Shown here in pieces: positions 12,900-34,478 of a stretch of 64,000 nt of DNA. Source of the stretch: Alphaproteobacteria bacterium (GTDB lineage: Bacteria > Pseudomonadota > Alphaproteobacteria > JBFXJJ01); assembly GCA_050175015.1 (NCBI GenBank), contig JBFXJJ010000010.1, positions 9,987 through 73,986 of the forward strand, given 5' to 3'. The notes below the pieces were generated by a model, which saw only the letters and a list, made by a program, of their open reading frames with translations, was not told the DNA's origin and searched no databases. How positions within the stretch are numbered: position 1 is the stretch's first letter; the number at the start of each line of letters is the position of its first letter. A program made the position numbers and the translations under genes.

Positions 12900-13847
12900 C
12901 TATTTTTTATTATCAAGAAACCACTGGTAATAAGATTTTAAGCCATCATCTAAGGAAATTTTGGCTTCCCAGCCGAGTTCTTTCAGCTTGCTTACATCAA
13001 GAAGTTTGCGGGGGGTGCCATCAGGTTTGCTTGTATCAAAAACCAAGCTGCCCGTAAAACCTGTAACCTTTTTTATTTTGGAGGCAAAATCAGCAATAGA
13101 TATTTCTTTTCCTGTGCCGACATTTACGTGTTCATAGCCATTGTAGTTTTTCATTAAGAAAATCAAAGCATCTGCCAAATCATCAGAGTATAAGAATTCT
13201 CTTAAAGGTGTTCCTGTACCCCAGATAACGACTTCTTTGTCTCCTGCTATTTTAGCGTTATGAAAACGCTGGAGCAGAGCGGCGGGAACGTGTCCGTTTT
13301 CAGGGTGAAAATTGTCGTTTATGCCGAAAAGATTGGTTGGCATAGCCGAAATAAAATTGGATCCATATTGTTTTTGATAAGCTTGGCAAAGCTTAATGCC
13401 TGTGATTTTAGCAATGGCATACCATTCATTAGTCGGTTCTAGTTCGCCAGTAAGCAGACAGCTTTCAGGCATAGGCTGTGGTGCAAATTTAGGATAGATA
13501 CAAGAAGATCCAAGGAATAACAGTTTTTGAACTTTGTGTTGAAAAGATGCCTGAATAATATTGGCTTCAATCATAAGATTGTTATAAATAAATTCCGCAG
13601 GATACATACTGTTAGCATAAATTCCGCCGACTTTAGCTGCGGATAAAAATACAGCGTCAGGCTTGTTGGCTTCAAACCAGTCATAAACATCTTGCTGGCA
13701 GCATAAATCAAGGTCTTTATGGCTTGCTGTTAATATTTGGCAGTTTTCTTGTTGTAAACGGCGATAAATTGCACTGCCTACTAATCCTTTATGCCCTGCA
13801 ACAAAAACTTTTTTGCCACTTAAATTGTAATCAAGCGAATTTGGCAT
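12900..13847 (-). CDS. fcl: GDP-L-fucose synthase (GDP-4-keto-6-deoxymannose 3,5-epimerase/4-reductase)
   Basis: Rossmann N-terminus [15 protein letters not shown]; [22 protein letters not shown] and the overall pattern are typical of Fcl. It overlaps gmd by 17 nt. Confidence 0.9.
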
Positions 13848-14898
13848 TGTTTTTCTGTCCTGACTGCATTTTGGCTAAATCTTTCTGCACCATCTCTTTG
13901 ACCAGAGTTTTGAAAGTTATTTCTGCTTGCCAGCCAAGTTTTTCTTTGGCTTTGGTTGGGTCGCCCAAAAGAAGATCAACTTCAGTCGGACGGAAATATA
14001 TCGGGTCGATTGCGACTAGTGTTTTTCCAGTTTTGGCGTCAATTCCTTTTTCATCAACGCCTTTGCCTTCCCATCTAATCTCTATGCCTACTTCAGCAAA
14101 AGCATATTCAACAAATTCTCTAACAGAATGAGTTTCGCCTGTTGCTAAGATGTAATCATCAGGGGTGTCTTGTTGCAGTATGCGCCACATTCCCTCGACA
14201 TAATCCTTGGCGTGTCCCCAGTCTCTTTTGGCATCAATATTTCCTAAAAACAGAGTATCTTGAAGACCCAGATGGATAGCGCATACCGCACGGGTGATTT
14301 TCCTTGTTACAAAGGTTTCTCCACGTCTTGGACTTTCGTGATTAAATAAAATTCCGTTTGATGCGTGAATGTTATAAGCTTCACGGTAGTTGATAGTAAT
14401 CCAATAAGCATAAAGCTTTGCCGCAGCATAAGGGCTTCGAGGGTAGAAAGGCGTTGTTTCTTTTTGAGGAGTTTCTTGAACTTTTCCAAAAAGTTCTGAA
14501 GTTGATGCTTGATAAAATCTGGTTTTATCTTTAATGCCGAGAATTCTAATAGCTTCTAAAAGACGCAGGGTTCCTAAAGCGTCGGCATTGCCTGTATACT
14601 CAGCGGTTTCAAAGCTTACTTGAACATGGCTTTGAGCGGCTAAATTATAAATTTCATCAGGCTGCACCGTTTGAATAATACGGATAAGATTAGTTGAATC
14701 GGTCATATCACCGTAGTGCATAAAGAATTTGGCATCTTTATTATGGAAATCTTTGAGTAGATGATCAACTCTTTCCGTGTTAAAAGAAGATGAGCGCCTT
14801 TTAATGCCGTGAACTTCGTAGCCTTTTTCAAGTAAAAGCTCAGCAAGGTATGAACCATCTTGACCTGTAATACCTGTTATAAGTGCCTTCTTTGCCAT
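13831..14898 (-). CDS. gmd: GDP-mannose 4,6-dehydratase
   Basis: [45 protein letters not shown] is the classic Gmd N-terminus. 355 aa. Confidence 0.95.
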
Positions 14899-15076
14899 AT
14901 TTTTTTCCTAAAAGTTTTTTGAATATTGTTAATTTTTTATATTCTTTTAGCGTAGTTATTTCAATATCAAAAAAGTTTTTTGGGATAAAATGAATTGATT
15001 AATAAAAGTTATTGCCATTCTTTGATAAGTATGGAAAAAAAGATAATGCCTTGTTTCACCAAGATAGCTTTGAAAA

Positions 15077-32050: not shown

Positions 32051-33514
32051 ATGTTATTTAATTCCTATTCTTATATTTTGTTGTTTTTACCAATAACGTT
32101 TTTTGTTTATTATGCCCTTAATAAATGGCACTATGTTTTAGCTGGTAGAGCCTTTCTAGTTATGGCATCACTGTTTTTTTATTCTTGGTGGAATCCTTTA
32201 TATTTACCGTTTTTATTGTTTTCTATTCTGGTTAATTATGCCATAGGCACGGCTCTTTTAAACGAAAAAGAAGGCAGAATTAAACCAAAGTTTCTGCTTA
32301 TATTTGGGATAATGCTAAATTTAGGTTTTTTGGGCTATTTTAAGTACGCTGATTTTTTTATTTCGAATGTTAATATTTTATTTAAGACTAATTTTAATCT
32401 TTTAAAGATAGTTTTACCTCTAGCTATATCTTTTTTTACATTTCAACAAATAGCATATTTGGCTGATAGCTATAAAAAAGAGACCAAAGAATATGATTTT
32501 TTAAATTATAGCTTGTTCGTTTGTTTTTTTCCGCAGTTAATCGCTGGACCTATTGTTCATCATATGGAAATGATGCCTCAATTTGCTAATAAACGTAATC
32601 TTATTAAAAATTATAAAAACATAGCTCTTGGATTTTTTATTTTTTCTTTGGGGCTTTTTAAAAAATCGGTAATTGCTGATTACTTTGCAAACTTTGCTAA
32701 TAATGGTTATGAGGCAGCAAATACGCTTAATTTTGTAGAAGGCTGGGTTACAAGTTTAAGTTATACCTTTCAGCTATATTTTGATTTTTCTGGATATACT
32801 GATATGGCGATTGGTTCTGCTCTTTTGTTTAATATTAAATTACCCCTTAATTTTAATTCTCCATATAAAGCTCTTAATATTCAAGATTTTTGGAGACGTT
32901 GGCATATGACACTTTCAAGGTGGCTTAAAGATTATTTGTATATTCCTCTTGGCGGTAATCGCAAAGGTAGAGTTAGAGGTTATATGAATTTATTTATAAC
33001 ATTTTTGCTTGGTGGTTTATGGCATGGTGCCGCTTGGACATTTGTTGTTTGGGGAGCAATGCATGGTTTTGCTACTGTTCTCTATAAAGTATGGCATAGC
33101 TTAGGCTTTAAATTACCGAAGCTTATTGCTTGGTTTATAACGTTTATGTTTATTAACATTACGTGGATATTTTTTAGAGCTGATAATTTGACGCAAGCAA
33201 AGAGTATTCTGAAAGCTATGTTGGGAATGCAAGGATTTAGAGTTCCCAGAAAACTAGGTTTTTTGGCAGATGTTTTTCCTAAGATTGATGTTCAAGTTGG
33301 AGATATGTTAGGAAACATTTATAAAAATAGTCCTCTAAACGTGTTTTTAATATTTTTTGCTATTTTTATTATAGTCTTTATATTAAATAACTCTAATGAG
33401 TTAAAAGAAAAATTTAAACCTACCATTAAATACCAAATATTTAATAGCATTGTTTTAGTTGTTGGTTTGATGTCTTTAGTTAAGGTTTCAGAGTTTTTAT
33501 ATTTTAATTTTTAG
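32051..33514 (+). CDS. MBOAT-family membrane O-acyltransferase (AlgI/DltB-like)
   Basis: Polytopic. The conserved RRWHMTLSRWLKDYLYIPLGGNRKG segment includes the catalytic His. Confidence 0.85.
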   Translation: MLFNSYSYILLFLPITFFVYYALNKWHYVLAGRAFLVMASLFFYSWWNPLYLPFLLFSILVNYAIGTALLNEKEGRIKPKFLLIFGIMLNLGFLGYFKYADFFISNVNILFKTNFNLLKIVLPLAISFFTFQQIAYLADSYKKETKEYDFLNYSLFVCFFPQLIAGPIVHHMEMMPQFANKRNLIKNYKNIALGFFIFSLGLFKKSVIADYFANFANNGYEAANTLNFVEGWVTSLSYTFQLYFDFSGYTDMAIGSALLFNIKLPLNFNSPYKALNIQDFWRRWHMTLSRWLKDYLYIPLGGNRKGRVRGYMNLFITFLLGGLWHGAAWTFVVWGAMHGFATVLYKVWHSLGFKLPKLIAWFITFMFINITWIFFRADNLTQAKSILKAMLGMQGFRVPRKLGFLADVFPKIDVQVGDMLGNIYKNSPLNVFLIFFAIFIIVFILNNSNELKEKFKPTIKYQIFNSIVLVVGLMSLVKVSEFLYFNF

Positions 33515-33530
33515 TAGGTTTCTTTAAAGT

Positions 33531-34478
33531 ATGAGCTATAGAAAATATCTTCTCAGGGTTTTACTGTTTTCTATCATAAACATTTTTCTTATTCTTAGTT
33601 TAGCAGCTTATTTAAATAAAGATTATGAAAGCGATGTTTTGTTTGATAAAGAATATTTATTAAAAACAAATCCTCAAATAATATTTGCTGGCGATAGCCG
33701 TGCGGAAATGCATTTGGACCCAGATGTAGCTGTGGCTTTTTTAGATATGAAAAATGGAGATGTTATTAATATTGCCCAATCTTCAGGAGATATTCTTGTT
33801 GTAAATGATTTGGCCGTACGATTTCCTAATAAATTTATCAATGCGACGCTTATCGTCAGTATTAGTGCTAATCAATTAAATGATGGTGCTAAAACACCCG
33901 TTTACTTTCCTAATTCTATGATTGCAAAAATGAATATTTTTGAGCAAATACAGATGTTTATTCCTAAAAATGCTGAAACATTATTTGCATATTATTACAG
34001 TAATATTGAACAAAAAATCAAAAAAATATTAGGTATTAATTTAAAAAAACCAAACCATAAATATGATAATCATAGAGGTTTTAAAATAAACGATAAAATG
34101 GCAAGTTTAGAGAGAATGATTTCAAAGAAAGATATAAATAATCATCCTTGGTATCAAAATTATAATTATTATGGTTTAAAGCACCAACTAATAAAAGATG
34201 CGCTTTCATCCTTGAAGAAAAGAGTAAAGAGGTTGGTTGTTTATACAGGAACATTCGCTCCTACTTATATAAAAAATATAGAAAATACAAATGTTTGGGA
34301 GAGTGAAGTTGTTTTTCAAAAGGCTCTTTTCGAAATATGCAAGGATTTGGATATAGAATTTATAAATTTTGTGGATTATAGCGATTTCGAAGATAAACTT
34401 TTTTCTGATGAAGCTCATTTCAATTATGAAGGTGCTAAAGTTTTTACTAAAATATTACTTTCAAAAGTTTTCAATTAG
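33531..34478 (+). CDS. SGNH/DltD-AlgJ-like partner protein of the MBOAT acyltransferase
   Basis: N-terminal TM anchor, then IIFAGDSRAEMHLDP (GDS motif). Sits immediately downstream of the MBOAT gene. Confidence 0.5.
   Translation: MSYRKYLLRVLLFSIINIFLILSLAAYLNKDYESDVLFDKEYLLKTNPQIIFAGDSRAEMHLDPDVAVAFLDMKNGDVINIAQSSGDILVVNDLAVRFPNKFINATLIVSISANQLNDGAKTPVYFPNSMIAKMNIFEQIQMFIPKNAETLFAYYYSNIEQKIKKILGINLKKPNHKYDNHRGFKINDKMASLERMISKKDINNHPWYQNYNYYGLKHQLIKDALSSLKKRVKRLVVYTGTFAPTYIKNIENTNVWESEVVFQKALFEICKDLDIEFINFVDYSDFEDKLFSDEAHFNYEGAKVFTKILLSKVFN

Follow-up and report, generated by a model that had tools for sequence, protein, structure and literature searches.

Can a glycan whose repeat units are polymerised by Wzy, under the control of Wzz, be flipped by an ATP-driven transporter of the PglK type in place of Wzx? 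This question is raised by a glycan gene island at positions 12900-34478 of a 64-kb window from an uncultured alphaproteobacterium (contig JBFXJJ010000010.1); the window is the whole stretch of DNA that was analysed, and coordinates are positions in it. In the textbook view Wzy and Wzz are tied to Wzx, and ATP-binding cassette (ABC) export is tied to polymers finished in the cytoplasm. The initial annotation had listed for this island gmd and fcl for GDP-fucose synthesis, four GT4, one GT2 and one GT11-like glycosyltransferase (GT), a Wzz regulator, a Wzy/O-antigen-ligase-family protein and a fused ABC exporter. All of these were recovered by Pfam and NCBIfam scans of every open reading frame (ORF) in 12900-34478, the GT11-like gene weakly. 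Twenty glycan-related genes are packed into 21.6 kb, with gaps of -50 to +51 bp within operons, and given this dense packing the gene arrangement is not a product of chance. Our analysis makes it somewhat likely that the ABC protein flips repeat units linked to undecaprenyl pyrophosphate (Und-PP) for polymerisation by Wzy and Wzz, the island as a whole serving this single pathway.

The exporter gene (15077-16879, plus strand) encodes a fused transmembrane domain (TMD) and nucleotide-binding domain (NBD), matched by Pfam ABC_membrane and ABC_tran, and is classed as PglK/Wzk/HepA type, a candidate Und-PP-glycan flippase. The Walker A, signature, Walker B and H-loop motifs are all intact. Among NCBIfam models PglK ranked first (321 bits), followed by HepA (276 bits) and MsbA (266 bits), all below their cut-offs, and PglK was the best half-transporter (249 bits) when the full-length protein was searched against PDB. 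With the membrane domain alone (residues 1-330), PglK was the only PDB match at E <= 1e-3 (E 3e-10). The alignment of this domain spans the external-helix segment of PglK, in which an NKYL motif is conserved. The external helix has been proposed to hold the polyprenyl tail (PMC4900756), and the outward-facing cavity of PglK is characterised by this helix and an arginine belt (PMC4900756, summarising Perez et al. 2015). The matches bear out the earlier assignment to the PglK-type fused half-transporters, and the sequence classes the protein as PglK-like, not as a PglK orthologue. The subfamily is very large: over 7,500 database clusters belong to it at E <= 1e-20, and its TMD carries motifs such as PYxFFLNRNS, EALGGIKDLKL and YAFAGYRLMPALQ.

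Sub-threshold NCBIfam matches, with MsbA scoring next to PglK and HepA, and an NBD that strongly matches many ABCB proteins could also belong to a generic lipid, drug or peptide exporter, a relative of MsbA or of multidrug transporters with no role in glycan export. The two MsbA models were matched far below their own cut-offs (TIGR02203, 266 vs 602 bits; NF008381, 202 vs 867 bits). However, the membrane domain finds only PglK in PDB, and the gene is divergent to gmd and abuts a DUF268 methyltransferase gene, no base separating the two. Moreover, its homologues sit inside glycan loci in several phyla. We consider a generic exporter highly improbable; the initial annotation had entertained an affinity with multidrug or lipid A exporters, but the membrane domain is closer to PglK than to MsbA or multidrug exporters.

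Absence of other flippases was assessed by Pfam scans of ORFs of at least 90 amino acids (aa; a small number of short or terminal ORFs aside), by a six-frame hydrophobicity scan and by six-frame phmmer searches with seed sequences. Across the 64 kb, Pfam gave no match to Polysacc_synt (Wzx), ABC2_membrane (Wzm), Bac_transf, Glycos_transf_4, Poly_export or STT3. Analysis of all stop-to-stop frames revealed as polytopic proteins only the ABC protein, the Wzy-like protein, an MBOAT protein, a transporter of the major facilitator superfamily (MFS; 48.5-50 kb), CdsA and RseP. In the six frames of the 64 kb, nothing was matched by the phmmer seeds (three for Wzx, three for Bac_transf and one for Wza). 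The window likewise holds no stand-alone NBD gene (Wzt), no ABC2_membrane permease and no PglB/STT3, PglC or bacillosamine genes. The earlier statements that Wzx is missing from the island and that a priming phosphoglycosyltransferase (PGT) is missing from the window both stand, the latter by the lack of any Bac_transf or Glycos_transf_4 match, and no Wzx was found just outside the island genes or anywhere else in the 64 kb. Unlinked priming genes are common, and a missing priming enzyme is not disqualifying for a Wzx/Wzy-type pathway. By these searches the 64 kb offers no credible flippase candidate besides the ABC protein.

The polymerisation genes are weakly recognised one by one and clearly recognised through their relatives. 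The Wzz-like protein (24152-25075, minus strand; 307 aa), a polysaccharide co-polymerase (PCP) of PCP-1-like type, matches Pfam Wzz (E 0.0037) and GNVR (E 0.0075) below threshold and in the expected N-to-C order. It has transmembrane (TM) segments at both termini and a proline-rich P-x-P-SSP-N motif before the second. Over 269 residues it aligns (BLASTP E 3e-21) with a protein of a comparison locus (L010:8859-9905) that passes the Pfam Wzz threshold (42.9 vs 25.5 bits), and the Wzz call was upgraded because of this homology. The two-segment topology and this alignment support the regulator named earlier, and the protein can be assigned to the Wzz family as a real member. Its gene lies 18 bp downstream of the Wzy gene in the same operon. 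AlphaFold2 (AF2) without an alignment gave a predicted local distance difference test (pLDDT) score of 45 for this protein. For the Wzz-like protein a word-index search returned no homologues, for the Wzy-like protein it returned two, and phmmer of both against PDB sequences returned nothing meaningful.

The Wzy-like protein (25094-26374, minus strand; 426 aa) matches Pfam Wzy_C at a sub-threshold E of 0.0099 when taken alone. An exhaustive HMMER search yielded 125 representative relatives, and 62 of the 84 aligned family members match Wzy_C (best E 8e-10). An AF2 model built on the 84-member alignment (pLDDT 92.9) has 12 long helices, and its best fold match in PDB is the WaaL ligase (7tpg, E 5e-5, TM-score 0.55), then FtsW, the order expected of a model with the Wzy/WaaL/SEDS shape. 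The family profile against PDB gave a marginal WaaL match (E 0.023) amid spurious K-channel matches. Residues R42, D45, R158, D176, H178, R224, R292, R306, D337, E397 and R403 are invariant or nearly so in the family. If the lysine-rich segment 248-255 and the C terminus are cytoplasmic, the conserved Arg, Asp, His and Glu residues of the model would lie in periplasmic loops; catalysis by Wzy and WaaL takes place on the periplasmic side. Family matches and the WaaL-like fold uphold the earlier naming as a Wzy/O-antigen-ligase-family protein: by sequence it is classed as a real 12-TM member of the Wzy_C family, and the gene context indicates that it probably acts as the repeat-unit polymerase Wzy.

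Relatives of the Wzy-like protein were located by scanning one genome per species with a 10-sequence alignment, and four genomic loci were obtained, from a Bacillus sp. and from metagenome-assembled genomes (MAGs) of Minwuiaceae, Cyclobacteriaceae and Pirellulales. None of the four loci contains a homologue of the ABC protein. A Polysacc_synt or Polysacc_synt_3 gene lies within 5 kb of the Wzy homologue in three of the four, a Bac_transf gene adjoins it in two, and Wza is found in one. In L010 the order is a WcaI-like GT4, Wzz, Wzy and then Wzx, the first three as in the window. The Bacillus (L009) and Pirellulales (L012) loci also hold the Wzy homologue together with Wzx. Because a family member accompanies Wzx in a Gram-positive Bacillus without lipopolysaccharide (LPS), a polymerase role is favoured over that of a lipid A-core ligase. 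The Pirellulales locus holds in addition a gene (L012:485-1378) that is 66% identical to the GT11-like gene of the window (18304-19191), far above any other shared gene. Since homologues of the plus-operon GT11-like gene and of the minus-operon Wzy share this locus, it ties both operons of the window to one kind of pathway. The identity suggests a recent transfer of the single GT11-like gene between phyla, from a comparison of the window with Pirellulales of the Planctomycetota.

Relatives of the ABC protein were approached from the other side. Seven homologues with 42-46% identity were inspected with precomputed Pfam context, and five of them are inside glycan loci. Wzz/GNVR and exosortase genes stand by the homologue in L003, a strong Wzz and GNVR gene lies 5 kb away in L006, and a Wzy_C gene lies 8 kb away in L007; in L005 and L008 the homologue is accompanied by GTs and methyltransferases without Wzy. 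No Wzx was found within +-10 kb of the seven homologues, and none of the ORFs without annotation in these stretches is polytopic. A scan of metagenomes with a TMD-only alignment gave 80 loci, of which 48 are at least 8 kb long (688 kb in total). Among the polytopic ORFs of these 48, the Pfam Wzy_C threshold was passed in L029, L043 (with its duplicate L045), L070, L088 and L092; EpsG was passed in L089 and weakly matched in L049, and one further polytopic ORF is FtsW. No flippase of the multidrug/oligosaccharidyl-lipid/polysaccharide (MOP) family was found among the polytopic ORFs of the 48 loci, and the Wzx seeds matched no ORF there. L088 has the trio of Wzz-like, ABC and Wzy_C genes, as in the window, while in L070 and L092 the Wzy_C gene is immediately 3' of the ABC gene, L070 also having a small Bac_transf gene. 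The homologues (39-46% identity) occur in GT-rich glycan loci of very different lineages, with a locus GC of 0.23-0.63, and given this range the co-occurrence of ABC and Wzy_C genes is not a quirk of a single lineage.

Comparison of the Wzy-bearing loci with and without the ABC protein revealed Wzx in none of the eight with ABC (window, L007, L029, L043, L070, L088, L092 and L089) and in three of the four that have no ABC gene; for this small sample of partly truncated loci a one-sided Fisher test gives p = 4/220 = 0.018. The pattern is suggestive of ABC and Wzx being complementary among Wzy-bearing loci. The initial annotation had called the combination of Wzy and Wzz with a PglK-like transporter an unusual hybrid; it does depart from the textbook arrangement, and the comparisons support it, but it is not rare in metagenomes. 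A wider proposition, which we hold tentatively and with slightly less than even confidence, is that PglK-type ABC proteins and MOP-family Wzx are exclusive alternatives for Wzy/Wzz along a widespread route, swapped by gene exchange between homologous loci. As part of that tentative proposition, the window would exemplify such a swap, with the WcaI-Wzz-Wzy module of L010 and the ABC protein replacing Wzx.

Several features of the comparison loci were recorded in their own right. The ABC-homologue loci L005 (3939-5984) and L036 (4069-6492) encode large proteins (681-807 aa) that combine 10-11 TM segments with TPR repeats; these have no other family match and may be ligase- or transferase-like partners. 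APS kinase, a CysN-like GTPase, a PAPS-reductase-like protein and sulfotransferases are encoded in two ABC-homologue loci (L006:5451-9866 and 16400-17110; L002:8879-9700), which suggests that the ABC subfamily exports sulfated glycans in some loci. In L094 (2914-6619) a Wzy-like relative is directly 5' of an MBOAT gene and a gene for a 322-aa protein (faint DUF1574), echoing the association of Wzy with an MBOAT pair in the window. Spotting of Wzz-like proteins by two-TM topology in the metagenomic loci was abandoned, as most candidates were false positives, for example Rossmann enzymes.

The WaaL-like fold raises the alternative that the glycan is finished on Und-PP and flipped en bloc by the ABC protein, the Wzy_C protein being a WaaL-like ligase or a PglL-like O-oligosaccharyltransferase. 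WaaL is the best structural match, the PGAP name of the protein is 'O-antigen ligase family', the GT4s of the minus-strand operon score best with the PglJ and PglH models of NCBIfam (far below cut-offs), six GTs could build a heptasaccharide-sized glycan, and most ABC-homologue loci are without a polymerase. The pairing of Wzk with WaaL is, moreover, established in Helicobacter pylori (PMC2841628). However, WaaL is the sole Wzy_C-family structure among the PDB matches, so that the fold cannot separate ligase from polymerase. A bona fide Wzz is encoded 18 bp downstream in the same operon, whereas H. pylori has neither Wzy nor Wzz, and relatives of the Wzy-like protein occur with Wzx and Wzz, including in Bacillus, which has no lipid A-core to ligate to. 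Typical PglL-type enzymes are longer than 426 aa, which makes the protein short for that type, and no PglB/STT3 is present in the window. On balance, en-bloc transfer with a ligase or transferase in place of a polymerase is regarded as quite unlikely here.

Whether flippase and polymerase belong to the same pathway depends on the two operons that carry them, which are convergent. The plus-strand operon starts with the ABC exporter gene, after which comes a DUF268/class I S-adenosylmethionine (SAM)-methyltransferase-like gene (16880-17638; Pfam DUF268 E 3e-16, Methyltransf_23). A 205-aa protein (17690-18307) is tentatively a methyltransferase, its sole match being the Erm45 SAM-binding region in NCBIfam (E 2.7e-6), with an ETGTYxG-type motif. 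The GT11-like, or fucosyltransferase-superfamily-like, protein is weakly matched by Pfam Glyco_transf_11 (E 0.04) and has an HLRLGDR motif of the HxRxGD type; phmmer found no match for it among PDB sequences. It is followed by a 370-aa possible ATP-grasp ligase (19204-20316), a tentative call from weak matches to an archaeal ATP-grasp model (E 0.0044) and to the L-amino acid ligase 3vot (E 0.016), and by two SAM-dependent methyltransferases (20361-21020, Pfam Methyltransf_23 and Methyltransf_11; 21026-21868, Pfam Methyltransf_25, _23, _11 and _12, best E 2.6e-14).

The minus-strand operon encodes, in reading order, a TupA-like ATP-grasp enzyme (30949-31836; Pfam ATPgrasp_TupA E 7e-39), a CapA/PGA_cap-family protein (29733-30998; PGA_cap E 1.3e-54), two GT4s (28648-29736 and 27549-28655; Pfam Glycos_transf_1 E 1.7e-31 and E 6e-37) and a GT2/GNT-I-like protein (26359-27546; Pfam GNT-I 31.1 bits and Glycos_transf_2 24.4 bits, both above cut-offs). 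After these come the 426-aa polytopic Wzy-like and the 307-aa bitopic Wzz-like proteins, a WcaI-like GT4 (22975-24168; NCBIfam NF007640, the WcaI family, 177 bits; Pfam GT4) and another GT4 (21855-22982; Pfam Glycos_transf_1 and Glyco_transf_4; best NCBIfam match PglJ-like, 152 bits, below cut-off). The plus operon thus holds the flippase candidate and a single GT, and the minus operon five GTs, Wzy and Wzz without a flippase. Because each is incomplete alone and the two are equally low in GC, both operons are taken to serve one pathway.

Separate, convergent transcription could instead reflect two unrelated pathways, the minus operon belonging to an ordinary Wzx/Wzy system with a remote wzx and priming enzyme, and the plus operon to some other lipid-linked glycan or modification. 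PGT and ligase are certainly unlinked, which makes a further unlinked gene conceivable, and ABC homologues are often found with methyltransferases and GTs without Wzy (L005, L008). Yet the plus operon, with its single candidate GT, has not enough transferases to build a separate glycan, and both operons lie, with equal GC, in one AT-rich island. The GT11-like gene and the Wzy homologue stand together in the Pirellulales locus, ABC-linked Wzy_C loci elsewhere are also without Wzx, and wzx and wzy nearly always share a cluster in O-antigen loci. Two unrelated pathways are judged unlikely.

Some observations weigh against a single pathway with the ABC protein as the flippase for Wzy. The data cover 64 kb of the genome, and a wzx may sit elsewhere; the priming transferase and the ligase are encoded outside the 64 kb, so clustering of the pathway genes is incomplete. 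Of the 48 ABC-homologue loci, about 40 show neither Wzy nor Wzx nearby, many metagenomic loci being truncated, and this fits en-bloc flipping of finished glycans, as in H. pylori and Campylobacter jejuni, as the commonest job of the ABC family. The ABC protein scores 321 bits against a PglK equivalog cut-off of 1000. Of the four arginines in the belt of PglK, by our own count on the HMMER alignment, R302 is the only one matched, by K, and R86, R260 and R309 are unmatched. The position of R260 is occupied by Q (about Q265) in the window protein, by R or K within P[RK]Y in most members of the subfamily, and by K in the closest relative (P0002).

From the gene content, family memberships, absence of Wzx in 64 kb and comparative pattern observed here, we infer the biochemical steps, as well as the ABC substrate and the acceptor, as follows. 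The products of gmd and fcl would convert GDP-mannose to GDP-fucose. An unlinked priming transferase would load undecaprenyl phosphate, and six GTs would assemble the repeat unit at the cytoplasmic face, where methyltransferases and ATP-grasp enzymes would decorate it in the cytoplasm. A homodimer of the ABC half-transporter (15077-16879) would then use ATP to flip the Und-PP-linked unit, in the place of Wzx. In the periplasm Wzy (25094-26374) would polymerise the units, with the chain length set by Wzz (24152-25075); the MBOAT pair would O-acetylate the polymer outside the cytoplasm, and an unlinked ligase would move it onto lipid A-core. Such ABC flipping for Wzy is plausible because an E. 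coli wzx mutant regains its O16 antigen, which depends on Wzy, when supplied with Wzk of H. pylori (PMC2841628).

The product is most likely a fucose-containing, O-methylated heteropolysaccharide, probably O-acetylated. Methylation is read from the methyltransferase genes, whereas amidation and O-acetylation are probable readings of the ATP-grasp and acyltransferase genes. Most likely it would be an LPS O-antigen, favoured over capsule or exopolysaccharide because the Wzz protein is short and kinase-less and because Wza and Wzc are absent from the window. A capsule-type reading, with a KpsE-like PCP and an ABC exporter, was ruled out, as the window has no KpsM/T-type transporter and no outer membrane polysaccharide export (OPX) protein or Wza.

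The sugar-nucleotide and modification genes complete the island. At its edge lie fcl (GDP-L-fucose synthase, 12900-13847, minus strand; NF047922, 526 bits against a cut-off of 500; Pfam Epimerase) and gmd (GDP-mannose 4,6-dehydratase, 13831-14898, minus strand; TIGR01472, 619 against 415 bits; Pfam GDP_Man_Dehyd E 2.5e-161). At the other end, an AlgI/DltB-like MBOAT membrane O-acyltransferase (32051-33514, plus strand; Pfam MBOAT E 1e-37; NCBIfam DltB, 147 bits, below cut-off) is followed after 16 bp by a 315-aa single-TM partner (33531-34478, plus strand). With its N-terminal TM segment and its GDS and DxxH-like motifs, the partner is possibly an SGNH-like O-acetyltransferase; it had no family match in Pfam or NCBIfam and none in the PDB-sequence search. 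The MBOAT pair, four SAM-methyltransferase-like genes, two ATP-grasp-like genes and the CapA/PGA_cap gene are additions to the earlier gene list. Phosphomannomutase and mannose-1-phosphate guanylyltransferase genes (manB/manC; 44803-47236, minus strand; Pfam PGM_PMM I-IV; NTP_transferase and ManC beta-helix), about 10 kb from the island, may supply GDP-mannose to gmd and fcl. They are part of a sugar-nucleotide cluster (44803-50039), 10 kb from the island, that includes a short-chain dehydrogenase/reductase (SDR) epimerase/dehydratase and adjoins a divergent 12-TM MFS transporter gene.

The island is set between gltB (7261-11733) on one side and housekeeping genes on the other, with an rpsB-tsf-pyrH-frr-uppS-cdsA-dxr-rseP block at 53.5-60.6 kb; two ORFs past rseP (60656-63521), which lay outside the scans, are probably bamA and skp by position. 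Analysis of base composition revealed a GC of 0.301 across 15077-34478 against 0.369 in the flanking core genes, equally low in the plus and minus operons, and a third-position GC (GC3) of about 0.17-0.28 in the stretch that begins with the ABC gene and ends with the partner of the MBOAT. The AT-richness reported earlier is thereby confirmed, except for gmd and fcl, which are core-like (GC 0.39-0.40). Low GC is usual for glycan loci and hence weak evidence for horizontal origin on its own, so of the proposed horizontal origin it is the 66% identity of the GT11-like gene to the Pirellulales MAG, pointing to gene exchange, that carries weight. A 14.3-kb Logan contig in run SRR27751817 is identical.

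Other stretches of the window deserve mention. Positions 1-7000 form a second AT-rich stretch (GC 0.25-0.30) of ORFs without clear annotation, with a 919-aa protein (faint FG-GAP repeat match), a DUF6782 putative metallopeptidase and three small ORFs without a family match, and may be another variable island. Between gltB and fcl, a gene at 11821-12657 (minus strand; GC 0.27) encodes a protein of 278 aa that starts with a signal-like hydrophobic segment and has no family match; the gene may be part of the AT-rich island. The run at 34695-38717 (minus strand) encodes RidA, a tetrapyrrole-type methylase, a 337-aa protein (faint DIT1/PvcA match) and a transketolase split into an N and a C subunit, and may be a small biosynthetic operon.

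In the open-access full-text literature, no natural locus with a PglK-type ABC flippase together with Wzy and Wzz was found described. Wzx specificity is considered a limitation in glycoengineering. If the proposed pathway is true, relaxed-specificity ATP-driven flippases would become available for the glycoengineering of Wzy-dependent polymers, and annotation pipelines and serotype or locus classifiers would currently be missing a category of loci. Interchange of flippase types has so far come from engineered complementation only, for example Wzk in an E. coli wzx mutant (PMC2841628), and natural loci with a PglK-type ABC protein and Wzy/Wzz would mean that the flippase swap is used in nature. 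The systems of H. pylori and C. jejuni and the engineered complementations are known; the natural combination of PglK-type ABC, Wzy and Wzz genes in one locus, recurrent in metagenomes, would be new.

Comparison with known systems revealed partial likeness to each. As in the Wzx/Wzy pathway of E. coli and Salmonella, a Wzy_C-family polymerase candidate adjoins a PCP-1-type Wzz among several GTs, sugar-nucleotide genes lie at the edge of a low-GC island, and the priming enzyme is unlinked, like wecA in E. coli; unlike that pathway, the 64 kb has a fused ABC exporter and no MOP-family Wzx, although relatives of the window Wzy elsewhere have Wzx. The Wzm/Wzt O-antigen pathway with its chain-terminating methyltransferase resembles the window in ATP-driven export and in methyltransferase genes that adjoin the transporter gene. 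It differs in having a separate ABC-2 permease and ATPase in place of a fused type IV exporter, and the window has a polymerase, Wzz and many distinct GTs, which suggest a heteropolymer repeat unit. HepA, too, is a fused exporter, and its gene lies in a polysaccharide island. The HepA model of the cyanobacterial heterocyst envelope polysaccharide (NF045513) is the second-best for the ABC protein (276 bits, below the cut-off of 725), but the host here is an alphaproteobacterium. Likeness to the Pgl system of C. jejuni lies in an ABC membrane domain closest to PglK, including the external-helix segment, and in GT4s nearest to PglJ and PglH; in contrast, the window is without PglB, PglC and bacillosamine genes, its Pgl scores are far below cut-offs, and Wzy and Wzz are present. 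As in the WecA-Wzk-WaaL pathway of H. pylori (PMC2841628), a PglK-type ABC protein is the sole translocase candidate for a fucose-containing Und-PP glycan, with no Wzx or Wzm/Wzt. H. pylori, however, is without Wzz and a Wzy-type protein and flips finished chains (PMC2841628), and its genes are scattered, whereas those of the window, with both proteins encoded, are clustered.

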